From NCBI GenBank assembly GCA_963666285.1, contig OY762711.1: a stretch of DNA of 64,000 nt. The stretch is one strand, 5' to 3'. Each line of letters starts with the position of its first letter. The stretch's first letter is position 1. Source of the DNA: Sedimentisphaerales bacterium. Its GTDB lineage: Bacteria > Planctomycetota > Phycisphaerae > Sedimentisphaerales > SM23-30. Position numbers and translations under genes: made by a program. Of the stretch, positions 953 to 58,792 are shown in pieces. The notes under the pieces were generated by a model. The model did not search any database. It saw only the letters and a list, made by a program, of their open reading frames with translations, and was not told the DNA's origin.

Positions 953-1185
953 AGATATCTCCAAAAATACATTCCATTGTTAACTGAAGAGACATCTTAA
1001 CGAGCATCGATACAGGCGCACAAACTCTCTACACCTGGAGAGAACACCCGCGTGAATATCTCCAACAAAACATCTGCAATATAGAAAAATTATCCAGAAA
1101 ATACCATTAGGCACAGAATGAACCTGATAAGGCATTACCGGCTTTTCCCACGAAAGCAGACGCAATCCGCAACCTTGCGGGTCAC

Positions 1186-1348
1186 TGGCAGGTATTCGGA
1201 CTCTCAGGCACTTACAAAACCTACTGGCTGTCGCTTCCCACCTATCAAGGCAGTGCTCAATGACAGCTTTCGTTCCTGATAACCGCTGCGGGGCAGTTCC
1301 GGATTCTCACCGGATTCCCTATTGCTTTACATCTTGTGTAAACCAGCA
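1186..1348 (-). ncRNA. Cobalamin (B12) riboswitch upstream of nrdD
   Basis: Reverse complement reads AATAGGGAATCCGGTGAGAATCCGGAACTGCCCCGCAGCGGT...CACTG...GGGAAG...GAGTCCGAATACCTGCC, matching the B12-element core and B12 box; boundaries approximate. Confidence 0.93.
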
Positions 1349-1370
1349 ACACAATCAATATATATTGTGC
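1324..1370. promoter_or_regulatory. Candidate tandem NrdR boxes
   Basis: gctttACATCTTGTG and tcaaTATATATTGTG, 31 bp apart, resemble the acaCwAtATaTwGtg consensus and lie upstream of an RNR gene. Confidence 0.5.
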
Positions 1371-15299: not shown

Positions 15300-15527
15300 T
15301 GGATTTATAATATTTTCAAGCTTACAGACAAAGAATGGTTTGGTACTCCCAAATCATTCTTTGTCCATTTTATGGAATGAGCTAACAAAACCCATAACTC
15401 ATTTCTAATTATACACACTTTGAACACACGTACATTTTTCTCACATATTAACATACATTCTTTGCACAATCTTCTATAAAACAATATTTCAATCATCTTT
15501 CTTAGCACCTCAATCCGGTTTTACAAT

Positions 15528-15544
15528 TTGGCATAGGAATTGCT
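15528..15544 (+). promoter_or_regulatory. sigma54 (-24/-12) promoter of the radical-SAM/GH3 operon
   Basis: TTGGCATAGGAATTGCT: exact GG-N10-GC spacing, ~70 nt before the ATG at 15614. Confidence 0.7.
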
Positions 15545-15613
15545 TTTAGCTAATCATTATATTTATGTATAATTATGCTTCTGTTAATGGAAAAATAGGA
15601 GACTTATGTACCA

Positions 15614-16984
15614 ATGAATATTCTGCTGATTATGCCGGATGCAAAAATGCACAAACTTAAAATCGGTCCATTGGTCCGATCAATGAGGGAAGCTCCACTT
15701 TCACTTGCAGTACTAGCTGCCCTGGCACCTTCGGAGCTTGACATTAATTTTCAGCTTATCGACGGCAGTATAGACAAAATCCCATACGATTCCAAACCTG
15801 ACCTGGTGGGTATCAGCGTCCTCACCGGCACAGCTAACCGGGCATACCAGATCGCCGATCATTTCAGAAGACGCAATATACCAGTTGTACTAGGCGGAGT
15901 ACACCCGACAATAATGCCGGATGAAGCTAGATTACATGCCGACAGCATCGTAATTGGCATGGCTGAAAATTCCTGGCCGCAGCTCCTGCAAGACTTTTAC
16001 GCCGGAAAACTAAAGACTACATACCGGGAATCTTCACCACCAGGTTCATGGCTGCTAAACATTCCTTCACCAAGAATGGACCTCATTAGAAAAACAGGAT
16101 ATATGCTGCCTAATAGTGCTCATGCAACCCGCGGATGCAGCAAAACATGCGATTTCTGCTCTGTACCTACAGTATGGAACAGGTTCCAGAAAAGACCTGT
16201 CAGCGATGTAGTTCGAGACATTAAACAGTTAAACTCAAAATATATTGCTTTTGGCGATGTTAATCTGATAGACGATATCGAATATGCCAAAGAACTTTTT
16301 ACCGCCCTGATAAAATTAAACATCAAATGGGGAGGTCTGGCTACAACAGAGGTAACCAAAGACCCAGAACTGTTTGAGCTTATGGTACAAAGCGGATGCA
16401 AATTCCTGCTGATAGGTTTCGAATCTGTAAACCAGCAGGCACTAAATTCAATCGCAAAAGGCTTCAACCATAATAAACAGTACCAGGAACTTATAAACCA
16501 ACTTCACTCAGCAGGAATCTCTATACAAGGATGCTTTGTCTTTGGCTTCGACCATGATGACACTTCTGTTTTTACTAACACCGTCGAAAGTGTTCAACAG
16601 CTAAAAATTGACATCCCCAGATATTCCATCTATACACCATATCCCGGTACAAGGCTATTTAACAGGCTTATGACCCAAAATCGCATTTTGAGCCTTAACT
16701 GGGAAGACTACGATACTATGCATGTGGTTTATCAACCAGAAAGAATGTCTCCTGAAGAGCTATACCATGGTTTCAAGTGGGCCTACAAAGAAACTTTCAA
16801 GCTTAGCCGCATAATCCGTCGTACAGCATCATTTAGCATTTCGTGCCCAATAAATTTCTTTGGCAACCTTACCTACAAGATATTTGTTAACAGGCTATAT
16901 AACGACCAGCGATTTGCCTTACCATTCACCAGGCAGACAAATATTGACTCAGGCAAAATGAATCTGGAGAAAAATAATGGCTGA
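15614..16984 (+). CDS. B12-binding radical SAM enzyme
   Basis: N-terminal B12-binding Rossmann domain (DLVGIS...VVLGGVHPT); RGCSKTCDFC; IGFES; TPYPGT. Confidence 0.92.
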   Translation: MNILLIMPDAKMHKLKIGPLVRSMREAPLSLAVLAALAPSELDINFQLIDGSIDKIPYDSKPDLVGISVLTGTANRAYQIADHFRRRNIPVVLGGVHPTIMPDEARLHADSIVIGMAENSWPQLLQDFYAGKLKTTYRESSPPGSWLLNIPSPRMDLIRKTGYMLPNSAHATRGCSKTCDFCSVPTVWNRFQKRPVSDVVRDIKQLNSKYIAFGDVNLIDDIEYAKELFTALIKLNIKWGGLATTEVTKDPELFELMVQSGCKFLLIGFESVNQQALNSIAKGFNHNKQYQELINQLHSAGISIQGCFVFGFDHDDTSVFTNTVESVQQLKIDIPRYSIYTPYPGTRLFNRLMTQNRILSLNWEDYDTMHVVYQPERMSPEELYHGFKWAYKETFKLSRIIRRTASFSISCPINFFGNLTYKIFVNRLYNDQRFALPFTRQTNIDSGKMNLEKNNG

Positions 16985-18323
16985 TATTACTTTTATATAT
17001 CCGTGCATGGGTAGATTTACCGACACAAAATATGTCAAATCCTGGCAAATGCAGCCGTTATCTATTGCTGTTCTTTCCGGCCTCACTCCCGCAGACTGGA
17101 CAAAAACTTTTTTTGATGACCGGCTCGAAGATATTAACTACAACCGGCCAACCGACCTGGTCGCTATATCTGTTGAAACCTATAACTCAAAGCGAGCCTA
17201 CCAGATCGCTGCCGAATATCGCCAACAGAATATACCAGTGATCATGGGCGGGTTCCACCCAACTTTCTGCCCGGAAGAAACACTCGAACATGCAAATGCT
17301 ATCTGTATTGGTGAAGCTGAACCAATTTGGCAACAGGTTCTGGAAGACTTCTCAGCAGGCAATCTGCAGCAAATATATCAGGGACAAGCACCGGAAACCA
17401 TCAGCACTGTATTCGATCGCTCAATATTTTCCGGTAAGAAATACCTCGATATCGAACTGGTAGAATACGGCCGCGGCTGTAAGTTCAAATGCAATTTCTG
17501 CTCTATTACCGCGTTCCATAATGCAACATACAAACAAAGAAACCTGGATGATATCATCTGCGAACTAAAAAAACTCAAAGGGGAAAATATATTCTTTGTT
17601 GATGACAATATAGTCGCCGACATCCCCAGACTCAAACATATGCTCCGCGCTATTATACCGCTAAAACTCACATGGGTCAGTCAGGGAAGCATAAATATGG
17701 CATCAGATAATGAATTGCTGGAACTAATGGTCCAAAGCGGATGTGCCGGGGTATTAATTGGATTCGAATCTCTCGACCACACCAACATGAAACTCATGAA
17801 TAAAGGTGTTAACCAGATTGATGGTTTCCCAACAGCCCTGGACAAACTGCGTAAAGCCGGGCTGAGAATCTACGGAACATTTATATTTGGCTACCCCAAT
17901 GATTCCGACGAGCTTGTCAAACAAACACTGAAATTCTCCAGGCAGCAAAAACTATTCATGGCAGCCTTTAACCATCTTGTCATTTTTCCGGGCACAAAGT
18001 TATACGAACAAGTCAACTCTTCAGGTAATCTGACAAATCCAAAATGGTGGCTCGATGAAAATTATCGTTTTGGCGATGTAGTGTACCAGCCGGAAAGCTC
18101 TTTCAGTGCCGAAAAAATCGAACAAACATGCATGGAGCTAAGACGCAAATATTACAGCCTCCCTTCGATACTTAAACGAAGCCTGGATTTCAAAGCCAAC
18201 TGCCGTACATTTAAATCAGCGGTTACATACTGGGGACTAAACCTGATGCTGAAACGAGAAATTGACCAGAAATTCGGGCTGCCGCTGGGACTTAGAAATC
18301 ATAACCAGGCAAAAAGGAACTAA
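16977..18323 (+). CDS. B12-binding radical SAM enzyme (second paralog)
   Basis: DLVAIS...VIMGGFHPT; RGCKFKCNFC; FFVDDN; IGFES; overlaps previous stop. Confidence 0.92.
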   Translation: MADITFIYPCMGRFTDTKYVKSWQMQPLSIAVLSGLTPADWTKTFFDDRLEDINYNRPTDLVAISVETYNSKRAYQIAAEYRQQNIPVIMGGFHPTFCPEETLEHANAICIGEAEPIWQQVLEDFSAGNLQQIYQGQAPETISTVFDRSIFSGKKYLDIELVEYGRGCKFKCNFCSITAFHNATYKQRNLDDIICELKKLKGENIFFVDDNIVADIPRLKHMLRAIIPLKLTWVSQGSINMASDNELLELMVQSGCAGVLIGFESLDHTNMKLMNKGVNQIDGFPTALDKLRKAGLRIYGTFIFGYPNDSDELVKQTLKFSRQQKLFMAAFNHLVIFPGTKLYEQVNSSGNLTNPKWWLDENYRFGDVVYQPESSFSAEKIEQTCMELRRKYYSLPSILKRSLDFKANCRTFKSAVTYWGLNLMLKREIDQKFGLPLGLRNHNQAKRN

Positions 18324-18324
18324 A

Positions 18325-19431
18325 ATGCCTCTTGTTTACTCTATAGCAGAAAAAGCAGATGAACCTCAGCTGCGTCAGCTAATGAGGAACTGCACGATGA
18401 AAGGAGCTGTTGAACTGGCTTTCCTCCAGGAGCCGGACTTCATTAAAGCTCAGCAGGTACATGGTCGTTTTGTTGAAACATATGTAGCACATGAATCGGA
18501 AAATAATACAATAGTAGGCATGGGTACCAGAGCTGTTAAACCCGCATACATCAATGGTAAACTTGACAATATTGGGTATCTATGTAATTTGAGACTGTTA
18601 AGCGAATATCAAAAAGGAACCGCCCTCGCCCGGGGTTATAAGATGTTCCGTCACGGCCATAACGACTCCAGAACAAACTTATACCTGTCAACGATCATCG
18701 AGGACAATATCAAAGCTCGCACAATCCTGGAATCAGGCCGTGCCGCACTACCTGTTTACACAGATATCGGCAGATTTCGCTCTTTCGTTTTCAGTCTAAG
18801 GCAAAAAGTTAAGCAGGCAAGAAACAAAAGCATTGCCATAAAAAGAGCTTCAAAAGATAATGTTGATGAAATCGTAAAATTCCTCAATACCGAAGGGGCG
18901 AACAAACAGTTTTTCCCTCAATATTTTCATGCAGACCTGACCGGTAATAACGGGATACTTCCCAATCTGAACCTCAGAGATATCTACCTGGCTTATAGCA
19001 ACAGCAAGCTTATAGGGATTACTGCAGCCTGGGACCAGACTCAATTCAGACAAAACCTAATAGTTGGATATGATCGCACAATTAAACATATCAGACCCAT
19101 CATAAATTTCGGGCTGGGTATTGCCGGGTACCCTACCTTTCCAAAACCAGGCACAATCCTGAAATGCTTTACACTAGGCCTGATATGCATAAAGAACAAC
19201 GAACCGAAAATTTTTTCAATTCTGATAGATAGCATTATTTCTGATCGCAAAAACACATATTCGCTCATGATCGCCGGACTGCATGAGAATGACTCACTAT
19301 TGAAAGTACTGACAAAACAAAAAGGGATCGCTTATAACAGCAGGTTATACGCTGTCTGCTGGGACAAAGATAAAAAGATGTTAGACAAACTAGATAATAA
19401 GATACCATATTTAGAATTGGGGGCACTATAA
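18325..19431 (+). CDS. Hypothetical protein, probable tandem GNAT-fold acyltransferase
   Basis: IGYLCNLRLLSEYQKGTALARGY resembles GNAT motif A; ATG at 18325 follows an AAGGA RBS. Confidence 0.6.
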   Translation: MPLVYSIAEKADEPQLRQLMRNCTMKGAVELAFLQEPDFIKAQQVHGRFVETYVAHESENNTIVGMGTRAVKPAYINGKLDNIGYLCNLRLLSEYQKGTALARGYKMFRHGHNDSRTNLYLSTIIEDNIKARTILESGRAALPVYTDIGRFRSFVFSLRQKVKQARNKSIAIKRASKDNVDEIVKFLNTEGANKQFFPQYFHADLTGNNGILPNLNLRDIYLAYSNSKLIGITAAWDQTQFRQNLIVGYDRTIKHIRPIINFGLGIAGYPTFPKPGTILKCFTLGLICIKNNEPKIFSILIDSIISDRKNTYSLMIAGLHENDSLLKVLTKQKGIAYNSRLYAVCWDKDKKMLDKLDNKIPYLELGAL

Positions 19432-20198
19432 TGAACCTTACCGGTAAAGTAGTTAATGTGAATAAACTTGGCGACGAAACCGTAAAACAGATGTTCAACC
19501 TGATGAAAAAGCATTATGACAATGTTGACTGGCATGTCTTTGTTGAAGATTTATACGAAAAAGACTGGGTGATACTATTGAATAATAATTTCGCATTGAA
19601 AGGCTTTTCCACGCAAATGCTAATAGAATATCGCCTGAATGGAGAAAAAGTAAACGTTGTATTCTCTGGCGACACTATAATCGACAAAGACTATTGGGGA
19701 TCAATAGCTTTACCGGTTACTTTCGGCAAAATGATGTTAGAAATTAAAACACAATCCGCAGGCAAAAAACTGTTCTGGTTCCTCATCAGTAAAGGATTTC
19801 GAACGTACAGATTTCTGCCTGTGTTTTTTAAAACTTACTACCCGGGAACAGACAGCAACACAGATAATTTCGCCCTTCAGCTATTACATAAAATAGCAGC
19901 AGAGCGTTATGGCGATAAATACAACCCCCGATCCAGTGTTATTAGTGTTGACAGGTTCTCCCAGAAGGTCAAACCGGGCCTGTGTGACATAACTGAAACA
20001 AATAGGAAAAACAAACACATAGCATTCTTTGAGCAGACCAATCCCGGCTATATCCTAGGAGAAGAGCTAGCCTGTATAGCACGCTTTGACCATGAAAACC
20101 TTACACCATTTATTCTCAAACGGATCATGCCTGGTCAGACAATTATCGAAAATAACATCAAAAGTTGTCATAATAAAAAAAGTTTTGCAATCCACTAG
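19431..20198 (+). CDS. Conserved hypothetical protein, GNAT-like fold
   Basis: FSGDTIIDKDYWG and WFLISKGFRTYRFLPVFF motifs; TAATG-coupled to previous gene. Confidence 0.55.
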   Translation: MNLTGKVVNVNKLGDETVKQMFNLMKKHYDNVDWHVFVEDLYEKDWVILLNNNFALKGFSTQMLIEYRLNGEKVNVVFSGDTIIDKDYWGSIALPVTFGKMMLEIKTQSAGKKLFWFLISKGFRTYRFLPVFFKTYYPGTDSNTDNFALQLLHKIAAERYGDKYNPRSSVISVDRFSQKVKPGLCDITETNRKNKHIAFFEQTNPGYILGEELACIARFDHENLTPFILKRIMPGQTIIENNIKSCHNKKSFAIH

Positions 20199-20204
20199 AC
20201 AATT

Positions 20205-21821
20205 ATGAAATATTTTAACAATATATCTTCTGTAACATGCCGAATGGCCAATCGTATCTGGATAGCTTCTATGAGAAAAGGCTATCACCGGTTTTGCCGT
20301 TCACTTAGAAATACTCAGGAAACGCAGGAGACATACCTTGCCGGCCTGATAAAAAACAACAGCAATACCCAATACGGTATCATGCACGATTTTGGAAAGA
20401 TCAGGTCCGCCAGGGATTTTCAAAATCAACTACCACTAACAAAGTATGATGACTATCTACCGTATATTGAGCAGATCAAAAATGGTAATAACAATATTCT
20501 TACCGGCGATAACATCATATTACTAGAACCATCAAGCGGCAGCACTTCAGCCTCTAAACTCATTCCATACACAAAATCGCTTAAAGATGATTTTAACGCA
20601 GGCATTCATCCATGGATGTACAATCTCTACAGAAACAATCCCAGGCTGTTTAATGGCAAATCATTCTGGTCTATATCTCCTGCTATGCCCGGAGTGCAAA
20701 CAGATTCTAAAGTTAAAATTGGTTTCGATAATGACTCCGAATACCTGGGCACAATCGGCAGATTCTTTTACAACAGGATATCAGCGGTACCTGACGATAT
20801 CGCTTCCATACAAAACCTGGAAATCATGCGTATTAAAACACTAGCTCACTTGCTGCTTGCCGAAGATCTGGTCCTGATATCGGTCTGGAACCCTACCTAT
20901 ATGACTCTCATGCTGGGCCATTTACATACTCACAAGGTTGAAATTTTTAACGAGCTTACAAAGCTGTCAACAAAAGAAAATATCCATAGAATCCGAAAGA
21001 TTGAAACATTATTTGGAAATAAAAATTCATCTTTCCTCGATATCTGGCCGAATCTTGCCATTATAAGCTGCTGGACCGACGGTACGTGCAATCTCTACGT
21101 AGAACAACTCAAAAGCCGATTCCCCGGCATAAAAATCCAGCCTAAGGGGCTTATCGCAACCGAAGCTTTTGTCTCGCTGCCATTCATCGAAGGCTGCGAC
21201 CCTGTACTTGCGGTCAACTCGCACTTTTTTGAATTTATCGACGAAACAAACGGTGAAATCCTTCTCGCTCATCAACTTAAAACCGGTAGAACTTATTCCG
21301 TTATCATTTCCACTGCAGGAGGATTGTACCGGTACCAGCTCGAAGATATTATTGAGGTCACAGGCCATTTGGAAACTGCACCTACTTTCCGCTTTATTTC
21401 CAAAGCAAACCACATCTCCGATCAATTCGGCGAAAAACTCAACGAACACCATGTACAAACCTGCCTTAATACTATTATCCAGAAATATAAACTCAATCCA
21501 GAGTTTTATATGCTGGCACCACATCATGATGAATATAAAAGAACCTTCTATTGTTTATATTTGCAGGATAATAATTATAATACAGATCATAACAAAAAAA
21601 TGATTAACAGTCTTGATATACTCCTCAGGGAGAATTTTCATTATGACTATTGCCGAAGACTTAACCAACTTCAGAGTCCGGAATTATTTATTATCCCGTC
21701 AAACGCAGTTAATATATATCAAAAAGAAATGCTCAATCGTAACATCCGTTGCGGCAACATAAAACCAACCTGTCTCGATAAAACCGCTAATTGGCATCAC
21801 GTTTTCAACAAATCAGAATAG
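20205..21821 (+). CDS. GH3 (auxin-responsive promoter family) adenylate-forming acyl-amido synthetase-like protein
   Basis: EPSSGSTSASKLIP, ATEAF, FFEFI, GGLYRYQLED, GEKLNE motifs. Confidence 0.88.
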   Translation: MKYFNNISSVTCRMANRIWIASMRKGYHRFCRSLRNTQETQETYLAGLIKNNSNTQYGIMHDFGKIRSARDFQNQLPLTKYDDYLPYIEQIKNGNNNILTGDNIILLEPSSGSTSASKLIPYTKSLKDDFNAGIHPWMYNLYRNNPRLFNGKSFWSISPAMPGVQTDSKVKIGFDNDSEYLGTIGRFFYNRISAVPDDIASIQNLEIMRIKTLAHLLLAEDLVLISVWNPTYMTLMLGHLHTHKVEIFNELTKLSTKENIHRIRKIETLFGNKNSSFLDIWPNLAIISCWTDGTCNLYVEQLKSRFPGIKIQPKGLIATEAFVSLPFIEGCDPVLAVNSHFFEFIDETNGEILLAHQLKTGRTYSVIISTAGGLYRYQLEDIIEVTGHLETAPTFRFISKANHISDQFGEKLNEHHVQTCLNTIIQKYKLNPEFYMLAPHHDEYKRTFYCLYLQDNNYNTDHNKKMINSLDILLRENFHYDYCRRLNQLQSPELFIIPSNAVNIYQKEMLNRNIRCGNIKPTCLDKTANWHHVFNKSE

Positions 21822-22073: not shown

Positions 22074-23415
22074 GGTTCACATCCCAAAAAGTTGGTAAAT
22101 TGACAAATAAATAAAGGACATTACACTTTCTTTTTTGATAAATTTTCACCACAAAAATTATTAGAAAAGGAAAAGTCCAATGTCCAGCCTTAGTATATCA
22201 AATTACTTTCCATTTATGCGAGTAAAAATTACAGAACAATCAGTTTATAGTGAAGAATCACCTTCTTCGATCATAAAGCTTTCTCCTGACAAGAGATATA
22301 AGCCATTGTGCCATGAGTGTGGTTCAGAAGCAGCTACAGTTCATTCTAATAATCACCTTAGGATGTTACGTGACTTAAATATAGCTGATTCCCAAACTTG
22401 GCTTCAGGTTAATTACCGTAAAATATGGTGTGATCATTGCGGCGGTGTCAGGGTAGAACAGCTAAGCTTTGCAGATGCATCAAAGCGAGTTACCCGGCGG
22501 CTGGCTCAGTATATATATGATTTATGTAAGATAATGACAGTCCAGGATGTTGCAGATCATTTGGACTTAAATCCTAAAACTGTCAAGAGCATTGATAAAA
22601 CCTTTCTAGAAAAGGAATATGGTGTCACTGATTGTGATAATTTGCGAATATTAGCTATTGATGAAATAGCAACTCGCAAAGGTCACAATTACATGACCGT
22701 CGTAATGGATTATATGACAGGCAGGGTTATCTGGATGGGTGAAAACCGTAATAAGGAAACCCTTGATGCCTTTTTTGCAGAGATGACCGATGAACAGAAG
22801 AATGCCATTGAAGCTGTTGCAATAGATATGTGGGATCCATTTATCAATCGAGTTAAGCACCATATTCCCGATGCCAAAATAGTATTTGACTTTTTCCATG
22901 TGGTACAAGCATTTGGACGGGTAATTGATGAGGTTCGCAGGCAGGAATACGCAAAAGCCACAGATCAGGAAAAAGAAATACTCAAAGGCAGTAAATATCT
23001 GTTACTAAAGAACGAAGAAAACCTCAAGGATAGTCAAAAAGAGCATTTAGAGAAAGTCTTGGAGCTTAACTCAACGCTGAGTACTCTCTATATTCTAAAA
23101 GATTATCTAAAACTTGTGTATTTTTATAGCGACCGTGATATTGTCAAGGAAACATTAGACCAATGGTGCCAAATGGCAGAAACACTGGATAACGCAACAG
23201 TTAATGCCTTTGTAAGAAAGCTAAGGAATCACGAATACGGTATACTTGAGCATGCTGACTACCCTATAGGAACAAGTATTCTTGAAGGAGTTAACAATAA
23301 AATCAAGGTCATAAAGCGGAAAGCCTATGGCTTCCATGATATGGATTACTTTACGTTAAAAGTGAAACAGGCGTTTGCCGCCTGAAATATTTACCAACTT
23401 TTTGGGATGAGAACC
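22074..23415 (+). mobile_element. Intact ISL3-family insertion sequence (1342 bp)
   Basis: 27-bp terminal inverted repeats GGTTC(A/T)CATCCCAAAAAGTTGGTAAAT with one mismatch; 8-bp direct repeat TAAAAAGT at 22066-22073 and 23416-23423. Confidence 0.95.
22180..23385 (+). CDS. ISL3 transposase
   Basis: CHECG/CDHCG zinc finger, AIDE, AIDMW, FDFFHV, EGVNNKIKVIKRKAYGF. Confidence 0.96.
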   Translation: MSSLSISNYFPFMRVKITEQSVYSEESPSSIIKLSPDKRYKPLCHECGSEAATVHSNNHLRMLRDLNIADSQTWLQVNYRKIWCDHCGGVRVEQLSFADASKRVTRRLAQYIYDLCKIMTVQDVADHLDLNPKTVKSIDKTFLEKEYGVTDCDNLRILAIDEIATRKGHNYMTVVMDYMTGRVIWMGENRNKETLDAFFAEMTDEQKNAIEAVAIDMWDPFINRVKHHIPDAKIVFDFFHVVQAFGRVIDEVRRQEYAKATDQEKEILKGSKYLLLKNEENLKDSQKEHLEKVLELNSTLSTLYILKDYLKLVYFYSDRDIVKETLDQWCQMAETLDNATVNAFVRKLRNHEYGILEHADYPIGTSILEGVNNKIKVIKRKAYGFHDMDYFTLKVKQAFAA

Positions 23416-23500: not shown

Positions 23501-24064
23501 GTGAATAATGAAGATTGGAACGACATTAAAACCTGCCTTACGGGTAACACAGACGCTTACAAGCATCTTGTGGAGCGGTACGAGGAACCTGTCACCAGGC
23601 TTATGTGGCGTTTTTCCTCAGACAGGAATATTTGCGAAATGCTCGTCCAGGATGTCTTCATTGAAGCTTACTATAGTTTAAAAACATATAAAGGCAATGC
23701 CCCGTTTCTACATTGGCTAAAAAAAATTGGAACAAGAACAGGATACAGATTCTGGAAGCAGCGTGAAAAAGAAAATCGTTTTCTGCCAATTCAGGATTTT
23801 GATTTTATAGAAAATGTCGAAGTTGACTCTATCGATCATGATCAGGCAGCTGAAATCTTAAACGCCCTGCTCAGCCGATTACCTGCAGATGACAGACTCG
23901 TACTTACCTTAATGTATTTTGAAAACTGCAGCATAAAAGAAATATCAAAACAAACCGGTTGGTCTGAATCTGCTGTAAAATCCAGGGCAATGCGGGCCAG
24001 AAATAAGATTAAAGCTATCGCCGAAAAAGAAAACATCTTGGAGAAATTAGGATGGACACTTTAG
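23501..24064 (+). CDS. ECF RNA polymerase sigma factor
   Basis: Region 2 (LVQDVFIEAY...FLHWL) and region 4 (SIKEIS..TGWSESAVKSRAMRAR). Confidence 0.9.
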   Translation: MNNEDWNDIKTCLTGNTDAYKHLVERYEEPVTRLMWRFSSDRNICEMLVQDVFIEAYYSLKTYKGNAPFLHWLKKIGTRTGYRFWKQREKENRFLPIQDFDFIENVEVDSIDHDQAAEILNALLSRLPADDRLVLTLMYFENCSIKEISKQTGWSESAVKSRAMRARNKIKAIAEKENILEKLGWTL

Positions 24065-24312
24065 AAGGAATTAAAATACTTGCCGACAAATCACAAAACC
24101 AGAAGCTGCCGTTATTTGGTATCTCCGAAAATGTCATAGCCCAGTTGAACGACGAACCAGCTCCTGTCAGCTTTGCCGCTTTCGACATTTCAGCCGGATT
24201 GTTTGCAGCAGCGGCATTTGTACTTATGTATATAGGTATCAATTCCTGGCTTAACTATATAGACCCAATTTCCCATTTCTTCTCACCTCTACAGGAGGCT
24301 AGATTATGGTAG
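24052..24312 (+). CDS. Small single-TM protein, probable anti-sigma factor
   Basis: Overlaps the ECF stop; one hydrophobic helix. Confidence 0.55.
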   Translation: MDTLEGIKILADKSQNQKLPLFGISENVIAQLNDEPAPVSFAAFDISAGLFAAAAFVLMYIGINSWLNYIDPISHFFSPLQEARLW

Positions 24313-24719
24313 AAAATACCGGCAAACAAATTATACGCAGACGTAATACTACACAAATTATTGCCGCTCTGGTCATTTTCGCTTCAGGGATAATTGTAGG
24401 CTCTGGCGCTACTATTTACACCCTGAAAGCTAAAGGCATACTCAGACCTATGACTCCCCCTTCTGCCGCTGAGATTGCTGACAGAATCGGTAAGGACCAC
24501 AAACTTACAAAAGAACAAATTCTGGAAGTAGAAAAAATATTTGAAGATGCCGGGAACTATTTAGAAGAAATTCGCACTGATTTTGATAATAAGATTGAAG
24601 CAAAAAAAGATATTATCATCAAAGAAATGCAAGCCGTTCTGCCACCGGATAAATTTGAAGAATGGCAGGAACATTTTAATTCCCACCACAACAAACGGCA
24701 CCCGGCACCAATGCCATAA
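24306..24719 (+). CDS. Membrane-anchored periplasmic helical protein (CpxP/Spy/heavy-metal-sensor-like)
   Basis: IFASGIIVG TM segment, LTKEQ motif, VLPPDKFEEW, His-rich tail. Confidence 0.6.
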   Translation: MVENTGKQIIRRRNTTQIIAALVIFASGIIVGSGATIYTLKAKGILRPMTPPSAAEIADRIGKDHKLTKEQILEVEKIFEDAGNYLEEIRTDFDNKIEAKKDIIIKEMQAVLPPDKFEEWQEHFNSHHNKRHPAPMP

Positions 24720-24914
24720 CCGCACGGTTTACATGCCTGCAAATACTACAGCCATAAATTAGTTTACTAATTAACCCTCCACGAAAGTCAGCCCATACTT
24801 AATATGAAGTGTTAGGCTCTGCGTCTACACAAAAATCAATACACACCAAGGACTACAAATGAACCAGAATTATTTAAAATTCCATTTATGTGCCGGTAAC
24901 AAGGAGAATATAAA

Positions 24915-26360
24915 ATGAAGTATATTCTTATGTCTCTGTTAACTGCAATATTCTTACCTGTTATCGGTTGTACTGTCGGGCCTGATTACACTTCACCCGC
25001 TCCGGATACAACTGATTCCTGGCATACCAGGCTGGATAAAGGACTGTCTGCTGAACAGGCTGATCCAAACTCTCTGTCTGACTGGTGGAATAATTTCAAT
25101 GACGACATACTTACCTCACTAATCGAAAGAGCCATTAATCAGAACCTGGATATAAAAGACGCTCTTGCCAGGCTCAAACAGGCTCGGATTGCTCGCGGAT
25201 TGGCTGAAACTGATAAGTTCCCTACCCTGGACTTATCCGCCAGTGCAAACTGGAGCCGCAATGGCACCAGCCCCACAACTGAATTGTATTCTACTGCATT
25301 TGATGCTGGCTGGGAAATCGATATATTTGGTGGTATTAATCGTTCAATTGAAGCTGCAACCGCAGAACTGGAAGCTTCCAGTGAAAACCTGAATGATGTT
25401 CTTGTTAGTCTATCGTCTGAAATTGCCATCAGTTATGTCGAACTAAGAATATACCAGACACAGCTCGGCATAATTGAACAAAATTTAGAATCACAGACTG
25501 AAACTTATCAGTTGGTTCAATGGGAATATGAAGCTGGTTTAAGTGATGAACTCGCTGGCCAACAGGCCCGGTACAACCTCGAAAGCACTCGATCCGAAAT
25601 CCCCGGAACTAAAACATCAATCAATGAAGCCATGAATCGTATCGCCGTTCTTCTGGGCGAAAAACCCGGCAGTATACATAATGAACTGGAAAAACCTTTG
25701 CCGGTTCCCGTGGCATCTCCGGAAATTGCTATTGGCGTTCCCGCAGATATATTGCGACGAAGACCTGATATACGTATGGCTGAACGTGAACTGGCCGCAC
25801 AAACCGCTCAGGTTGGTGTTGCAACCGCCGACCTGTACCCCAAACTGAGTCTGCATGGTTCAATTGGCATACAGGCTTCTAATCTAAGCAGACTTTCCAG
25901 CAACATCACCACAACAGACAGCTGGGTTCTAAGCGGTGGCCCTCAAATCAGCTGGGCAATTTTTGACGCTGGGGCTATACGAAAAAATATAGAAATCCAG
26001 TCGACTCTTCAGGAGCAGGCTCTAATTAACTATGAAAACACTGTTCTGCTTGCCCTGGAAGAAATCGAAAATGCTTTAACAGCATATATAAATGAGCAAA
26101 ACAGGATTGTTAATTTGAAAAAAGCTGCCGAAGCAGCTGAAAAAGCTGACGTACTGGCAAAATATAACTACAGTGCCGGCCTTTCAGATTTTAACGATGT
26201 ATTGGAATCGCAGCGGTCACTTCTGTCTTTCCAGAACCAGGTTGCTCAAAGTAACGGTACAATTACTTCTAATCTTATTCGCCTGTACAAAGCATTAGGG
26301 GGCGGATGGAATTCATCAACTGCCGAAAAAAGAATCGCTAGATATTATCAGGAGAAATAA
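24915..26360 (+). CDS. Outer-membrane efflux lipoprotein, NodT/TolC family
   Basis: Lipobox IGC-TVGPDY; WEIDIFG; LRRRPDIR.AER; LYKALGGGW. Confidence 0.93.
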   Translation: MKYILMSLLTAIFLPVIGCTVGPDYTSPAPDTTDSWHTRLDKGLSAEQADPNSLSDWWNNFNDDILTSLIERAINQNLDIKDALARLKQARIARGLAETDKFPTLDLSASANWSRNGTSPTTELYSTAFDAGWEIDIFGGINRSIEAATAELEASSENLNDVLVSLSSEIAISYVELRIYQTQLGIIEQNLESQTETYQLVQWEYEAGLSDELAGQQARYNLESTRSEIPGTKTSINEAMNRIAVLLGEKPGSIHNELEKPLPVPVASPEIAIGVPADILRRRPDIRMAERELAAQTAQVGVATADLYPKLSLHGSIGIQASNLSRLSSNITTTDSWVLSGGPQISWAIFDAGAIRKNIEIQSTLQEQALINYENTVLLALEEIENALTAYINEQNRIVNLKKAAEAAEKADVLAKYNYSAGLSDFNDVLESQRSLLSFQNQVAQSNGTITSNLIRLYKALGGGWNSSTAEKRIARYYQEK

Positions 26361-27646
26361 TGAAAACAAATAATAAACAAAAAGTAGATATTGAACAAAT
26401 TATCAATAATAAGCAATCTTCAACATCCAAAAGATGGTTTAAACGATTGATTATTGTTCTTATTCTTTTAGCTATCGTAACTGCTGTTGCCTTTAATAAG
26501 AAAGGTTCTGCATCTTCCGACATGCAATTCAAAACTGAAAAGATAAATAAAGGAGACCTGACCATACTCGTTACTGCTACCGGCTCTCTGGAACCTACAA
26601 ATGAAGTGGAAGTAGGCAGCGAAATCTCTGGTCGAATAGAAAGTGTAGAAGTTGATTTCAACGACAAGGTTACCATCGGCCAGGTACTAGCCAGGATAGA
26701 TACTACCAAACTTAAGGCTCAGGTCACTCAATCAAAAGCTTCACTTGAAGCTGCCAAAGCCACTGTACTGCAAGCTCAGGCCACACTTCAGGAAGCAGAA
26801 AGCAAACTCAAACAATACGAAAAAGTCCGCAAACTAAGTGAAAACAAAGTGCCTTCCCAAACTGAATTTGATTCTGCTAAAGCTGCGTATGCACGGGCAA
26901 ATGCCGATGTTGCCAGTGCGAAAGCAACCGTAGCCCAGGCAGAAGCTACCCTCCAAGCCAACGAAACCGACTTTTCAAAAGCTGTAATAAAATCTCCTAT
27001 TAATGGCGTTGTACTAACCAGGGAAATAGAAACTGGCCAGACTGTTGCCGCATCATTTGAAACACCTGTCCTTTTTACTCTTGCCGAAGACCTGACTCAA
27101 ATGGAACTACACGTCGATGTGGACGAAGCTGATATCGGCCAGGTCAAAGATGGGCAACTGGCAACATTTACTGTCGATGCCTACCCTGACCGCACTTTTA
27201 ACGCTGCAATTAAACAGATACGATATGGCGGAGAAACCGTTGACGGTGTTGTAACTTACGAAACTGTACTTAAAGTAGACAATAGCGAGCAGCTTCTCAG
27301 ACCCGGAATGACAGCTACCGCCGATATTATTGTTTTGCAGATAGAGAAAACTTTACTTATTTCCAATGCCGCACTGAGATTTGAAATGCCCGAGAACACC
27401 GGCAAATCAAATGGCGGCGGTATAATGGACAGTTTACTGCCTCACCCGCCAAGGAGAGAAACCGAACAAAAGCAAAGTGCAATAAAACGTAACAGCCAAC
27501 ACAAGATCTGGCTACTGAAAGATAATCATCCTGAACCAGTAACTATTACAGTTGGTGAAACGAATGGAGTTTTGACTCAAATTGTTGAGGGGGCGGTAAA
27601 AGAAAATTCCGAGCTAATAGTTGATACATTCAGCGGAGTAAAATAA
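26360..27646 (+). CDS. MacA-type periplasmic adaptor subunit
   Basis: TATGSLEP..EVEVGSEISG; IKSPINGVV; GQTVAASF; VDEADIG; LRPGMTA. Confidence 0.92.
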   Translation: MKTNNKQKVDIEQIINNKQSSTSKRWFKRLIIVLILLAIVTAVAFNKKGSASSDMQFKTEKINKGDLTILVTATGSLEPTNEVEVGSEISGRIESVEVDFNDKVTIGQVLARIDTTKLKAQVTQSKASLEAAKATVLQAQATLQEAESKLKQYEKVRKLSENKVPSQTEFDSAKAAYARANADVASAKATVAQAEATLQANETDFSKAVIKSPINGVVLTREIETGQTVAASFETPVLFTLAEDLTQMELHVDVDEADIGQVKDGQLATFTVDAYPDRTFNAAIKQIRYGGETVDGVVTYETVLKVDNSEQLLRPGMTATADIIVLQIEKTLLISNAALRFEMPENTGKSNGGGIMDSLLPHPPRRETEQKQSAIKRNSQHKIWLLKDNHPEPVTITVGETNGVLTQIVEGAVKENSELIVDTFSGVK

Positions 27647-27836
27647 TGCAATGCGGATATAAAAATACGCCCGTAATAGAAATAATGCAATGCGGATATA
27701 AAAATACGCCCGAAATATAAATAATGCAATGCGGATATAAAAATACGCCCGTAATAGAAATGATGCAAGACGAACACAAAAATACGCCCGTAATAGAAAT
27801 AATGCAATGCGAACACAAAATACACCCGTAATAGAA
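27642..27836 (+). repeat. Five tandem 39-bp units at the adaptor/ATPase gene junction
   Basis: Unit AATAATGCAATGCGGATATAAAAATACGCCCGTAATAGA; units 4-5 diverged, unit 5 is one base shorter and contains the ATPase start. Confidence 0.95.
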
Positions 27837-28517
27837 CTGAATAAGATCAAAAAGATCTACGGAACCGGTCAGGCCGCCGTACATGCTCTGAGAGGTATTG
27901 ACTTACGGATAGAAAGAGGAGATTTTGTCTCCATTATGGGCCCAAGCGGCTCAGGAAAATCCACCTGCCTGAATATTCTCGGATGTCTTGATACCCCAAC
28001 TGACGGACACTATCTTTTTGAAGGTGCACGAATTGACGGTTTCAGCAGAAATCAGCTGGCTATGCTAAGAAGACATTTTCTCGGATTTGTCTTTCAGGGT
28101 TTTAACCTGCTCAGCAGGACCTCGGCATTGGAAAATGTGGAACTACCACTGATATACCGAGGGGTACCCGTTAAAGAGAGAAAGACCAAAGCAGCGCAAG
28201 CACTTGATGCCGTAGGACTTAAAGGCTGGGAAACACACACTCCCGCCGAACTGTCCGGCGGTCAGCAGCAGCGAGTAGCTATCGCGAGGGCTATTGTAAC
28301 CCAACCGGATGTACTTATGGCTGACGAACCAACCGGAAACCTTGACACAGTACGCAGTCATGAAACCATGGAACTGCTGGTCGAACTCAATACCCAACAT
28401 GGTATTACCATTGTGATGGTAACCCATGAACCGGAAATGACAGCTTACACGAAACGTACAATCCATTTTCGTGACGGCCATATCGAATCAGATAAAACAA
28501 ACGGAGATAGAATATAA
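27807..28517 (+). CDS. ABC transporter ATP-binding protein (MacB/LolD type)
   Basis: GPSGSGKST, LSGGQQQRVAIARA, DEPTGNLD. Confidence 0.95.
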   Translation: MRTQNTPVIELNKIKKIYGTGQAAVHALRGIDLRIERGDFVSIMGPSGSGKSTCLNILGCLDTPTDGHYLFEGARIDGFSRNQLAMLRRHFLGFVFQGFNLLSRTSALENVELPLIYRGVPVKERKTKAAQALDAVGLKGWETHTPAELSGGQQQRVAIARAIVTQPDVLMADEPTGNLDTVRSHETMELLVELNTQHGITIVMVTHEPEMTAYTKRTIHFRDGHIESDKTNGDRI

Positions 28518-29722
28518 TGTTGTGGGACACTCTAATTCTGGCAATTCGCGAAATAAAAAGACACGTTTTACGGTCTTTATTAACTATGCTAGGTATTGTT
28601 ATTGGGGTGGCCTCGGTGATTACAATGGTAACTCTTGGTAACGGCGCTACCGTTCAGGTCACAGACCAGATCGCTAGCCTCGGCAGCAATCTTCTAATGG
28701 TTCGACCAGGCATGAGACTCGGGCCTGGTCGCGACTCTACCGCTGCCCCCTTCAAACTGGCCGATGCTGAAGCGATTGCAAGAGATATACCATCGATAGC
28801 CGCGGTCGCCCCTTCTGCCGGCTCCGGAGCAACAGCAATTTACGGTAATGAAAACTGGTCAACGACCATAACCGGAACCACCAATGAATATTTCAAGGTC
28901 AGAAACTGGGATATTGACACAGGCAGAGAATTCAACGACTCAGAGATTAAAGCCGGCGGAGCGGTATGTATTATAGGAGATACTATCAGAAGAGAACTCT
29001 TTGACCAGGTAGACCCGATCGGTAAACGCTTGAGACTAGGAGCGTTATCGTTCCAGGTAATCGGTATATTAGAATCAAAAGGCCAGAGTACAATGGGTAC
29101 CGACCAGGATGATATAGTGATAATTCCTTTGCGGGCGCTGCAGCGGCGAATAGCTGGAAATCGAGATATCAGCTTGATCCAGGTATCGGTTGAGGACGGT
29201 GCTTCTACAGAAAACGTCAAACAAAAGATCCAGGAGCTCTTTAGGGAGCGACGTCATATCGCCGCCAACGAAGACGATAACTTTGACGTTATGGACATGA
29301 AAGAGATCGCCAATATGCTAACTGGTACCACCCAGGTGCTGACGGCGCTGCTAAGTGCGGTTGCCGCGGTAAGTTTAATAGTAGGCGGAATAGGAATAAT
29401 GAATATTATGCTGGTTTCAGTAACCGAACGAACGCGTGAAATCGGTATCCGGCTGGCAATCGGAGCTCTTGAAAAAGAAGTACTTACGCAATTCCTGGTA
29501 GAAGCGGTAGTTTTATCCTCATCTGGCGGAGTAATAGGGATATTGTTGGGTCTGTCAGCATGCTGGGGTTTGAAGGATATCCTGCAGGTACCGTTTATTT
29601 TTAACCCTGGAATTGTTGTACTGGCGTTTCTGTTTTCAGCGGCAGTAGGCGTAATCTTCGGCTATTTTCCAGCGTTAAAAGCGGCCAGTCTCGACCCGAT
29701 AGATGCTTTACGACATGAATAA
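28517..29722 (+). CDS. MacB-type ABC transporter permease
   Basis: RSLLTMLGIVIGV; GGIGIMNIMLVSVTERTREIGIR; LDPIDALRHE. Confidence 0.95.
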   Translation: MLWDTLILAIREIKRHVLRSLLTMLGIVIGVASVITMVTLGNGATVQVTDQIASLGSNLLMVRPGMRLGPGRDSTAAPFKLADAEAIARDIPSIAAVAPSAGSGATAIYGNENWSTTITGTTNEYFKVRNWDIDTGREFNDSEIKAGGAVCIIGDTIRRELFDQVDPIGKRLRLGALSFQVIGILESKGQSTMGTDQDDIVIIPLRALQRRIAGNRDISLIQVSVEDGASTENVKQKIQELFRERRHIAANEDDNFDVMDMKEIANMLTGTTQVLTALLSAVAAVSLIVGGIGIMNIMLVSVTERTREIGIRLAIGALEKEVLTQFLVEAVVLSSSGGVIGILLGLSACWGLKDILQVPFIFNPGIVVLAFLFSAAVGVIFGYFPALKAASLDPIDALRHE

Positions 29723-37013: not shown

Positions 37014-39020
37014 CTACTTTGATTTTGCCAGATGGTTGTTAAGTTCAGCCATCAGCTTATCGATATTACAGGCACTAATAACCTTGTCATTTATCCTCAC
37101 GTTCGGGCCGGAATCGCATTTTTCAAAGCAGAATGTAGCTTTGACATCGACATCGGTAATATTTTCCGCTTCCAGCCGGTCGAGCAGCTCGTGCATAAGC
37201 TTTTGTGAGCCTTTGAGGTAGCAGCTGGTACCAACACAAACCCTGACCTTGACGGCAGCTTCAGAATTACTCTCAGTAACAGAGAAATCCATATCGCTCA
37301 TGCGTTTGCGGCTGCTGTATCCGGTGTGTAAGGTATGGTGAGCCTTATGGCCGCCGATTTCGCCGTCGAAACAATCATCGTAGCACTTGGTGAGGAACGG
37401 ATTGTCCTGGCTCTTGTGCAGCTGCAGCTGTTTATCGTTGCGATAGATGCCAGCGGTACGCTTGGCGGTAGTTTCGGTAGTCCAACCTTCCGGCTGACCG
37501 GCACCTGAAACACAACCACCCGGACAGCTCATAACCTCTACGATATCGTAGTCACATTTTCCGGCACGAATCTCTTCGGCGATCTTTTTGGCGTTTGCCA
37601 GTCCGTGGACGATTGCGAGTTTCAATTTGACCTCGCCAACTTCGAGTTCGGCAATCTTGGTATTTTCCGGACCGCGTACTTCGTGGAAGTCACATTCGTC
37701 CAGAGTCTTGCCGGTAACTTTTTCGGCGGCATAACGGAGTACAGCTTCGCTGACACCGCCGGTAACGCCGAAGATTACGCCTGCACCGGTCTTGAAGCCA
37801 AGCGGCATATCAAGAGCTTCCGGTTCGATATTTTCGAAATCTATACCGGCTTCGCGGATCATCTGGCCGAGCTCCTTGGTAGTCAGAACCGCCTGAACAT
37901 CGGGCAGCCCGTCGACAGCAAATTCGCCACGGCCAGCCTCGAACTTCTTGGCGGTACAAGGCATGATTGAAACAGTATAGATATCTTCGTTAGAGACACC
38001 AAGCTGTTCCGGCAATATCTTTCGAGATACGGCCCCGAACATCTGCTGAGGGCTCTTACATGTTGACAGATGGTTGAGCAGGTCAGGGAAATACTGCTCG
38101 GCATACTTGACCCATGCCGGGCAGCAAGAAGTCATAATCGGGAGGTTTTCGCCCTTGGCCTTGCGTTCGAGGAACTCGTTGGCCTCTTCCAGTACAGTCA
38201 TGTCAGCGGCGAAAGAAGTGTCAAACACCCTGTCAAAACCTATCCGATTCAAGGCCGCAACAATTTTGCCGGTAGTAACTTCGCCGGACGGGATATTGAA
38301 CATTTCACCGATTGCAACGCGAACAGCGGGAGCAATCTGGGCGATAACCTTTTTCTTAGGATCGTTGACAGCTTTCCATACCTGTTCAACGTCATTTTTG
38401 ACGGTGATAGCACCAGTCGGGCAGACGTTGGCACACAGGCCACAGTATACACACTCGACCTTGTCGAGATTTTTGCCGAAGGCAGGCTGAACAATAGTCT
38501 TTGCGCCACGGTTAGCAAAATCGATAGCCCCTATGCCCTGCAGTTCGGCACAGGCACGAACACAGTCGCCACATAGAATACATTTATCCGGGTCGCGAAC
38601 AATAGACGGGTTGCTGTTGTCAACCGGGTAGTGAGTCTTGGAACGTTTGAACCGAACATCCTTAACGCCCATCTTGCTGGCCAGTTCCTGAAGTCTGCAA
38701 TGAGTGCTTTTGGCACAGGTAGTACAGTCGGTATGGTTATTAGCCAGCAGCAGTTCCATGAAAACCTTACGCATTTCACGGAGCTGACCGGTATGGGTTT
38801 TAACTTTCATGCCGGCTTTGGGTGTGATAGAGCAAGAAGCCTGGATGCCCATTTTTTCGATTTCAACGATACAAAGGCGGCAAGCGCCGTATACGCTAAG
38901 CTCAGAATGGTAACAGAAGGTCGGCAGCTCGATCTTAGCCTTTCGAATAACTTCCAGAAGATTCTTCTCGCCTTCGAGCAGAACGTTTTTTCCGTTTATA
39001 TTTACATATTCTTTATTCAT
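37014..39020 (-). CDS. hydA: [FeFe]-hydrogenase catalytic subunit of a trimeric electron-bifurcating enzyme (group A3)
   Basis: H-cluster motifs TSCCPAW, MPCTAKKFE, EVMSCPGGC; N-terminal 2Fe-2S and 4Fe-4S clusters; C-terminal thioredoxin-like 2Fe-2S domain. Confidence 0.95.
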   Translation of the reverse strand: MNKEYVNINGKNVLLEGEKNLLEVIRKAKIELPTFCYHSELSVYGACRLCIVEIEKMGIQASCSITPKAGMKVKTHTGQLREMRKVFMELLLANNHTDCTTCAKSTHCRLQELASKMGVKDVRFKRSKTHYPVDNSNPSIVRDPDKCILCGDCVRACAELQGIGAIDFANRGAKTIVQPAFGKNLDKVECVYCGLCANVCPTGAITVKNDVEQVWKAVNDPKKKVIAQIAPAVRVAIGEMFNIPSGEVTTGKIVAALNRIGFDRVFDTSFAADMTVLEEANEFLERKAKGENLPIMTSCCPAWVKYAEQYFPDLLNHLSTCKSPQQMFGAVSRKILPEQLGVSNEDIYTVSIMPCTAKKFEAGRGEFAVDGLPDVQAVLTTKELGQMIREAGIDFENIEPEALDMPLGFKTGAGVIFGVTGGVSEAVLRYAAEKVTGKTLDECDFHEVRGPENTKIAELEVGEVKLKLAIVHGLANAKKIAEEIRAGKCDYDIVEVMSCPGGCVSGAGQPEGWTTETTAKRTAGIYRNDKQLQLHKSQDNPFLTKCYDDCFDGEIGGHKAHHTLHTGYSSRKRMSDMDFSVTESNSEAAVKVRVCVGTSCYLKGSQKLMHELLDRLEAENITDVDVKATFCFEKCDSGPNVRINDKVISACNIDKLMAELNNHLAKSK

Positions 39021-39058
39021 TGTATATTAAACCTCGTTTAGAGTTTTTCTTATAACTT

Positions 39059-40957: not shown

Positions 40958-41039
40958 TTTATCAGCTCTCCGCTTTATAATAGGTAATAGGTATTAGGTT
41001 TCAGGACAGTTTACGCCTGACGGCGAAACAGCCCCCATA

Positions 41040-41555
41040 TTATCCCTGCTCCTTAGCAATAATTTCATCAACCAGAGCCACAGCTTTGTCTTCGGTCAAT
41101 AAACCATGCACCTTATCATTTATCGTAATAACAGGTGCCAGCCCACAGGCCCCAAGACAGGATACTGTTTCGACAGTAAACATCATGTCGTCAGTAGTTG
41201 TCTTTTCGTCAGAAAGCTCGAGCCTTTTTCGTATAGCTACCAGTAAGTTTTCAGTGCCTTTGACATGACAGGCAGTACCATCACACAGGCGGATAACATA
41301 CTTACCCTTGGGCTCGAGAGCGAAATGACCATAGAAGCTGGCGACGCCATATACCTTGGCCGGCGGCAGGTCGAGCGAGGTTGCAACGTATGCCAAGACT
41401 TCCTGAGGCAGATAGCCGTACTCTTTCTGCACTTCCTGCAGGATAGGTATCAGCTTGGAAGGTTTATTACCATTTGCCTTGATAATTTCACATACCTTAT
41501 CATACTTTCTGATTTTTTCTTTTTCATTTGCACAATTACATTTGCACTGTTCCAT
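41040..41555 (-). CDS. hydC: NuoE-like 2Fe-2S hydrogenase subunit
   Basis: CDGTACHVKG and CLGACGLAP. Confidence 0.95.
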   Translation of the reverse strand: MEQCKCNCANEKEKIRKYDKVCEIIKANGNKPSKLIPILQEVQKEYGYLPQEVLAYVATSLDLPPAKVYGVASFYGHFALEPKGKYVIRLCDGTACHVKGTENLLVAIRKRLELSDEKTTTDDMMFTVETVSCLGACGLAPVITINDKVHGLLTEDKAVALVDEIIAKEQG

Positions 41556-41718
41556 TTCTACGGTCTCCTACCAGAAGTAATCTGGACTTTCCCCAGCCAA
41601 TCAAGCGGCCGGATGACTTATCAATTGTAAACTTCATGCACAAACCATAAAGGTTTGCCGATACTATAATTGAGGCTACTCTATAGGTACCCTTAAATAT
41701 TTACATGTAAAAATTTTG

Positions 41719-42915: not shown

Positions 42916-42941
42916 AAGGCCTTGCCTTAAAATAACCTACT

Positions 42942-43122
42942 GTGCGGTATCGCACTCTTGACTGTTCAACATTACACGCAAAGTCCGGAACAGGGCCTTG
43001 TGAATGAAAAACTTTTCATTTATTGTATTTTCGAGCTAACTCTCGAAAGTATTTTTAATTCCAAGCGTTGCAGGAAGGCCCTTTCAGGCGATTTTTGCAA
43101 CTTAAAAACTGTGAAAGTAAAC
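42942..43122 (+). repeat. Four-hairpin dispersed element, copy B (full length)
   Basis: Fills most of the hydS-phosphatase intergenic space; aligns end to end with 49734-49916. Confidence 0.92.
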
Positions 43123-44820: not shown

Positions 44821-45166
44821 CTGAGCACCTCTGGTGTAAAACCCTGCCAGTTTACAGGCAAGGCGACACTATCGTCTGTTAACGTTTCATCAGCCTGATA
44901 TAATGACCAGGCAAAACAGTCAGCGCGCGGAATCTCCGCACAACTTCTATTCTATACTTAACACAAAAAATAATTACGACAGGTCCATATCTACTTACTC
45001 TATCTAATTACTTATCGGAGCCTATCTAATTTCTACTATCTCTATCCACTTATCAATAATTGTATGTTATATGGCTATAAAATTTTTAATTACAACCATT
45101 TAATAAAAAAATCAATAACTGAGGCATAAGTGACATCCCCAATGTCGCGCCCCATATTCAAGCTAT

Positions 45167-45445
45167 TTAACCACTTGCCTTATCGTCTTTATTAACATAG
45201 TACTTTACCAGGTCAATAAGAACACCAGGAGTAATACCTTTATGTCTTTCATTGTTTATAATAACATTTGGCCCATCCTGACAGTTACCTTCGCAGAGAC
45301 TTCCAGAAATATCAACAATATCATCAAGGTTATTGTTTTTAACATATTCCTGTAATACTTTGAGGGCCTCTTTACTACCCCTTGAAAAACAGGAGCTGCC
45401 AAGGCAAATACAAACTTTAATTTTACCTGGGTGTTTATTGTTCAA
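45167..45445 (-). CDS. Thioredoxin-like (2Fe-2S) ferredoxin (HfsA-like)
   Basis: ICLGSSCFSRG...LCEGNCQDGPNV. Confidence 0.85.
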   Translation of the reverse strand: MNNKHPGKIKVCICLGSSCFSRGSKEALKVLQEYVKNNNLDDIVDISGSLCEGNCQDGPNVIINNERHKGITPGVLIDLVKYYVNKDDKASG

Positions 45446-46100: not shown

Positions 46101-46175
46101 AGCATTCACCTTTTTAACGGTTAAGGTTAAAGAAGTATGATGCAAATACGCCAGCACCACCTCAATCGATACCCT

Positions 46176-58767: not shown

Positions 58768-58792
58768 TATAATTATTAGGAGCTTATTAGCT

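Follow-up and report, generated by a model that had tools for sequence, protein, structure and literature searches.

The stretch of DNA analysed here (the window) comprises 64,000 nucleotides of contig OY762711.1 from a Sedimentisphaerales bacterium (assembly GCA_963666285.1), and it contains an operon of five genes, A to E, that encode two B12-binding radical S-adenosylmethionine (rSAM) enzymes, two proteins with GNAT folds and a GH3-family adenylating enzyme. This cassette is real, widespread and, as far as the literature searched is concerned, uncharacterised. Our best reading, to which we give slightly better than even chances as a whole, is that the operon encodes a soluble, oxygen-independent pathway for an amide-linked, tailored fatty-acyl compound that is most probably an amino lipid. 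This pathway would consist of two modules: D and E would build an N-acyl amino-acid lipid, and A, B and C would tailor the lipid without oxygen. The initial annotation of this DNA had proposed a pathway for a methylated or cyclised acyl-amide or aminolipid; synteny and predicted folds lend support to this proposal, while its product and the chemistry of A and B are still presumptive.

The operon (15614-21821, plus strand) and its upstream border comprise the following features, in which aa stands for amino acids:

15327..15365, plus strand: terminator-like 17-bp hairpin 3' of the upstream rhamnosidase gene, which it sets apart from the operon
15529..15543, plus strand: sigma54 (-24/-12) promoter-like site TGGCAT-N5-TTGC, with a start predicted at about 15555
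15614..16984, plus strand: gene A, B12-binding rSAM enzyme of clade A, 456 aa (Pfam PF02310 and PF04055)
16977..18323, plus strand: gene B, B12-binding rSAM enzyme of clade B, 448 aa (33% identity to A)
18325..19431, plus strand: gene C, tandem GNAT acyltransferase of 368 aa with a fixed C-terminal Leu, similar to N-myristoyltransferase (NMT) and Eis (assigned from predicted fold and synteny)
19431..20198, plus strand: gene D, single GNAT-fold protein of 255 aa, from a family without a Pfam model that is fused to GH3 in some bacteria (assigned from predicted fold)
20205..21821, plus strand: gene E, GH3-family adenylating amide synthetase, 538 aa (Pfam GH3, GH3_M and GH3_C)

In the list of open reading frames (ORFs) of the window, the five genes are co-directional and abut or overlap, as had been described: A and B overlap by 8 nt, a 1-nt gap separates B from C, C and D overlap in TAATG, and D and E are 6 nt apart (junctions from -8 to +6 nt). 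The ATG at 18325 as the start of C is backed by its closest homologues, which are mostly 367-368 aa long. The GC content of the cassette is 41.3%, compared with 41.1% for the genome. All five proteins lack hydrophobic stretches of the kind that form membrane helices, and their solubility is part of the reading given above, with the same better than even chances. Downstream, the operon is bounded by a single-copy ISL3 insertion sequence (window 22074-23415), whose terminal inverted repeats are 27 nt long and whose 401-aa transposase is intact. Two sets of neighbours were rejected as cassette members: the upstream rhamnosidase gene, on the other side of the 17-bp hairpin, and the downstream ECF/TolC/MacAB genes, which lie beyond the insertion sequence and have matches in few loci. 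This downstream region (window 23501-29722) encodes an ECF sigma factor, two small membrane/periplasmic proteins and a TolC-MacA-MacB-type exporter, and is not conserved with the cassette.

The initial annotation proposed a synteny search, in which the five genes were found to co-occur widely. A search with the single D sequence gave no match and an alignment of D was needed; this alignment matched at least 587 confirmed stretches, the best 80 loci of which were analysed (many are cut by contig ends, loci L001-L005 are not counted, and other genes were allowed between those of the cassette when order was scored). At 50% clustering, 2356 representatives match the D family. E is present in 71 of the 80 loci, C in 69, C and E in 67 (thus C, D and E stand together in 67) and at least one B12-rSAM gene in 62; the same-strand order rSAM-rSAM-C-D-E is kept in 44. 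Cassette loci are carried by Planctomycetota, Verrucomicrobiota, Acidobacteriota, Desulfobacterota, Myxococcota, Bacillota and Omnitrophota, and also by Riflebacteria, Calditrichota, Spirochaetota, Armatimonadota, Sumerlaeota and Gemmatimonadota. The closest relatives of the cassette that have a name are Sedimentisphaerales; among the kin of the host it is sparse, being found in 5 of 401 genomes of the order, none of three congeners and 18 of 401 genomes of the phylum. Tree-distance correlations among the five genes are all positive (0.23-0.57), although kinship inflates all of them and that of B with D is no higher than its permutation maximum.

D and E are the most constant pair of the cassette. 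E matches GH3, GH3_M and GH3_C with 154, 67 and 30 bits (Pfam cut-off 23.6), and the GH3 motifs first noticed in this gene are kept among 60 homologues: SSGSTSASK, GLIATE and GGLYRYQLED represent the three nucleotide-binding motifs defined in the available part of PMC12493201, and residues S111, G112 and K118, G315, T319 and E320, and G372, G373, R376 and D381 are conserved in at least 90% of these homologues. OlsH, the only characterised bacterial GH3 enzyme found, makes N-acyl ornithine from a free fatty acid and ATP without an acyl carrier protein (ACP), according to the same part of that paper. Since OlsH forms its amide from a free fatty acid, ATP and ornithine, E would likewise activate a free carboxylic acid with ATP as an acyl-adenylate and join it to an amino acid or another amine.

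The AlphaFold2 model of D (predicted local distance difference test, pLDDT, 93.0) is a single GNAT (Foldseek E 5e-7, Z about 12), and its best fold matches are tied: NatD (Z 12.2), LasI (12.1) and AAC(2') (11.8). To judge from its fold, D would add a second acyl group taken from acyl-ACP or acyl-CoA of the host. Five proteins are D-GH3 fusions, and two pairs of them are 54% and 66% identical end to end, so that assembly artefacts are unlikely. The D-family domain is also fused to JmjC (five proteins), MMPL (one) and FG-GAP/ASPIC repeats (one). A prediction of the D-E complex scored 0.00, which gives no verdict and is counted neither way.

Neither C nor D has a match in Pfam or NCBIfam, and a profile comparison of the two was not significant (probability 9.6%). 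The structure prediction recommended for these middle proteins, which had been called GNAT-like, did yield GNAT folds for both. C is a tandem GNAT (AlphaFold2 model, pLDDT 94.7) whose best Foldseek matches are N-myristoyltransferases (E 3e-14); in VIA it gives Z values of 21-23, with similar values for other tandem GNATs. C homologues from 69 of 69 loci terminate at the same position, give or take one residue, and in 65 the last residue is Leu; the ends of D and E, in contrast, scatter. The structural alignments with yeast NMT and Eis end at residue 368 of C, opposite residues 455 and 402, respectively (these are range ends of the alignments, not distances). In the available parts of the respective papers, the C-terminal carboxylate is the base that deprotonates the amine acceptor, both in NMT (PMC7048800) and in Eis (PMC8556138); C shares with them a tandem GNAT fold and a last residue aligned with their catalytic last residue. 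Because of this fixed and aligned C-terminus, C likely acylates a primary amine with its own C-terminal carboxylate as base, and in the tailoring module it would act on a free primary amine. C differs from both enzymes in that identity is about 10%, and from NMT in that it does not have the N-terminal extension. It presumably also lacks the third domain of Eis.

In A and B, the Pfam B12-binding and Radical_SAM domains are both above cut-off, and the CxxxCxxC motif, noticed at the outset together with the B12 domains in these two paralogues, is present in 147 of 147 rSAM clade members. The rSAM proteins of cassette loci sort into clades A (59) and B (59) and two accessory clades (16 and 13), with 4 of 151 outside. 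A and B are below every NCBIfam cut-off, the best scores on named equivalogs (BchE, HpnJ, HpnR, PhpK and the ladderane rSAM) being 100-104 bits against cut-offs of 481-578, and their closest solved structures are distant. Each of them would methylate or cyclise one unactivated carbon, at two different positions, in the way GrsA and GrsB act on tetraether lipids; both the reactions and their order are presumed. The host genome has three cobalamin riboswitches and, at 97% completeness, no match to CobS, so the host probably takes up B12. One cobalamin riboswitch (RF00174, 98 bits) lies at window 1170-1362 on the minus strand, and the ORF downstream of it resembles by eye an anaerobic ribonucleotide reductase, an ordinary arrangement.

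Since B12-rSAM enzymes act on peptides elsewhere, and since the ApyD and RiPP (ribosomally synthesised and post-translationally modified peptide) models of NCBIfam match the B12-rSAM proteins of the operon weakly, the cassette could be thought to modify a peptide or protein, with C lipidating its N-terminus like NMT, which C resembles in fold and C-terminal register, and A and B methylating it. This is very unlikely in our view. Among 2772 ATG-started short ORFs (25-100 aa) in 81 loci, no precursor peptide or ACP-like gene is conserved, which agrees with the absence of both stated in the initial annotation; no protease or peptide exporter recurs among the 80 loci; and Eis puts the same C-terminal base to small amines, as described in the available part of PMC8556138.

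The fatty-acyl nature of the product is suggested by the genes that accompany the cassette. Lipid-type accessories are found in 46 of the best 80 loci. The recurrent neighbours are SnoaL (24 loci), Rieske (21), non-B12 rSAM (17), desaturase (16) and PAP2 (14) proteins, followed by a Pls-domain-like membrane protein (12), DUF4345 (12), a Tes-like rSAM (9; 111 bits on the Tes model, cut-off 450) and PLD (5); an unassigned family, which resembles hydrolases by eye only, occurs in 13. Of 20 SnoaL proteins checked, 18 have a membrane anchor at the C-terminus. The lipid reading is drawn from the desaturase, PAP2, PLD, Tes-like, Pls-like and SnoaL accessories, together with the one D-MMPL fusion. Oxygen-dependent accessories occur in 27 of the 80 loci and extra non-B12 rSAM genes, some of them Tes-like, in 20, and the two are never found together (Fisher p 7e-5, which overstates the significance, as related loci are not independent). 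This exclusion is suggestive of one kind of tailoring that is achieved with oxygen in some loci and without it in others.

The same accessories bear on the identity of the acid activated by E. Solved GH3 relatives use indole-acetate, benzoates and jasmonate, and Rieske oxygenases stand beside 21 of the 80 loci, as could be expected if the acid were aromatic or otherwise non-fatty and the pathway made a cofactor-like or aromatic amide. We consider this distinctly improbable, given the desaturase, PAP2, PLD, Tes-like and MMPL associations and the fact that no aromatic precursor genes recur among the 80 loci. GNAT and GH3 conjugation inactivates small molecules in other systems, and the fold matches include AAC(2') and Eis, so the operon might also serve the detoxification or uptake-linked modification of an external compound instead of biosynthesis. 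However, as many as five B12-rSAM paralogues from four conserved clades, together with lipid-tailoring accessories, would be costly for simple detoxification, and the chances of this explanation appear slim indeed.

Versions of the cassette without rSAM genes exist, one of them inside an efflux operon. In Acinetobacter baumannii (L089, 9150-18583), the order is EmrA-MFS-D-GH3-outer membrane factor-C, with no B12-rSAM gene in the stretch fetched; the interleaving of D, GH3 and C with this efflux operon suggests that the pump has a home-made substrate. In the available part of PMC5997985, the Acinetobacter GH3 gene comes up solely among the predicted interactors of an efflux protein, and a literature look-up by locus tags of the operon gave no match. 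This arrangement favours an alternative in which the product is an exported small acyl-amide, such as a signal or an antimicrobial, and not a membrane constituent. The patchy distribution, the conditional sigma54 control in the host (see below) and the match of D to the acyl-homoserine lactone synthase LasI (Z 12.1, tied with other GNATs) point in the same direction. We regard an exported product as unlikely, although with a chance that is far from negligible: no transporter is conserved among the 80 loci, the MacAB-TolC-like genes of the window lie beyond the insertion sequence and have few counterparts, and the accessories PAP2, PLD and SnoaL, the last with its membrane anchor, speak for the membrane.

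Other variants were also found. The Burkholderia locus carries D, C, a desaturase, E and a Rieske protein, and the part retrieved contains no B12-rSAM gene. On a Citrobacter plasmid (L088, 137-7188), D-E-A-B-C occurs with three more rSAM genes, PAP2, SnoaL and a desaturase; this copy adjoins an alpha-2-macroglobulin operon. Seven cyanobacterial loci keep D and have Rieske and diiron enzymes, E in three of the seven (where the locus reaches) and no C or B12-rSAM. In these loci (L061, L067, L073, L076, L077, L084 and L085), D is accompanied by several Rieske proteins, ferritin-like and AurF-like diiron proteins and ferredoxin, and also by an Mpo1-like protein, a fatty-acid hydroxylase and GH3; no described product was found for them. 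In Azospirillum (L091, 7277-14035), a D homologue stands by a reductase-domain protein, an ABC exporter, a band-7 protein and a porin, with no GH3 match in the stretch, so that the family has another setting here.

Several points weigh against the amino-lipid pathway. Its substrate and product are deduced by analogy. E is far from OlsH (45 bits on model NF052613, cut-off 620), and GH3 enzymes also accept aromatic acids. The tied GNAT matches of the D model name no acyl donor. The Acinetobacter D, E and C genes sit inside an efflux operon, and the patchy distribution fits a specialised metabolite equally well. The host genome has none of the accessory families beyond weak generic rSAM matches, and the lipid reading therefore rests on what other loci contain. 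Besides, the available part of a 2026 review (PMC13459092) names only ladderanes and the Jaw5 product as radical-SAM-modified fatty-acyl lipids. A bolder form of the amino-lipid reading, doubtful but with an appreciable chance, is an undescribed class of bacterial amide lipids in which A and B would methylate or cyclise the tails, and Tes-like loci would cross-link two tails into a membrane-spanning amino lipid. This would be an amide-based analogue of the tetraether chemistry of archaea, and in aerobes oxygenases would take the place of the extra radical enzymes.

The exact GG-N10-GC promoter reported ahead of the operon has been upheld as a credible sigma54 site: it is intergenic, lies upstream of a gene and occurs in a genome with rpoN. 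The sequence TGGCATAGGAATTGC at 15529-15543 is the sigma54 consensus with one mismatch. In the window alone, a relaxed sigma54 pattern is not above chance (6 matches, 3.6 expected). With the correct 5-nt spacer, the main contig has 28 sites, of which 14 are intergenic and at most 300 nt upstream of an ORF; seven wrong spacers give 7 of 139. The host genome contains rpoN and 17 activator-domain matches, 10 of them strong. A sigma54 activator would switch the operon on conditionally in this host. One sigma54-dependent activator is encoded at window 50265-51881 (minus strand), 29 kb from the operon, and could not be tied to its promoter. In L005 (genome G009), a related genome where the operon is rearranged with GH3 first, the same motif, as TTTGGCAT-N5-TTGCT, stands directly before GH3. 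Since three other order-level loci (L004, L086 and L087) have no such site directly before the operon, sigma54 control of the cassette is local (2 of 5 order-level genomes), and it was rejected as a cassette-wide feature. A site in L044 was also rejected as a cassette promoter because it belongs to the upstream operon.

With respect to the rest of the window, the host is probably an anaerobic planctomycete, and [FeFe]-hydrogenase genes are present: positions 37014-46160 (minus strand) hold a multi-subunit [FeFe]-hydrogenase cluster that includes a sensory-type hydrogenase, a SpoIIE phosphatase and a Rex-like regulator. At 54661-60681 (plus strand), ORFs of 1368, 273 and 316 aa, with no Pfam match at 1e-6 and a low GC content (31-36%), are followed by a NERD-domain gene; this region is a possible acquired island.

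The five-enzyme set occurs in hundreds of genomes and no product is assigned to it in the papers searched. An amino lipid, if that is what is made, would add a further route to the three so far described for ornithine lipids; it would also be one of the rare instances in which radical-SAM chemistry acts on fatty-acyl lipids, and would be useful for environmental lipid biomarkers. The host locus, a minimal five-gene version in a genome without accessories, is a clean choice for reconstitution. No characterised pathway for the five genes was found in the literature, mostly non-subscription papers without supplements (the supplementary GH3 tree of the OlsH paper may include family members). A Xanthomonas "GH3" paper was rejected as a match, since GH3 there means glycoside hydrolases. 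The initial annotation likewise named no characterised product for the combination, and it overlooked the nearest system known, the bacterial GH3 enzyme OlsH (available part of PMC12493201).

E shares with the plant GH3 acyl-acid amido synthetases JAR1 and GH3.12 the fold and adenylation motifs, and differs from them in its low identity and bacterial operon context. A and B resemble GrsA/GrsB, HpnP/HpnR, HpnJ and Gmm in their B12-binding plus radical-SAM architecture and in being a paralogue pair side by side; however, they reach no more than about 100 bits in NCBIfam, where the cut-offs are 250-775, and those enzymes act on isoprenoid lipids and none is tied to GH3 or GNAT in the available part of the radical-SAM lipid review (PMC13459092), in which the terms GH3, amide and GNAT are absent. 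Similarly, radical SAM and GNAT are absent as terms from the available part of a 2026 amino-lipid review (PMC12971839). The closest parallel is OlsH/OlsI of Singulisphaera acidiphila, described in the available part of PMC12493201: its GH3 enzyme, too, has the three nucleotide-binding motifs and a partner acyltransferase, an ACP gene is not needed, and the host group is planctomycete. The cassette differs from it in the low OlsH score of E, in having two GNATs and not the alpha/beta-hydrolase OlsI, which is not encoded by any of the five operon genes, and in the addition of two B12-rSAM enzymes. Judged by its sequence, the cassette would work like OlsH, yet it is not a member of the OlsH family.

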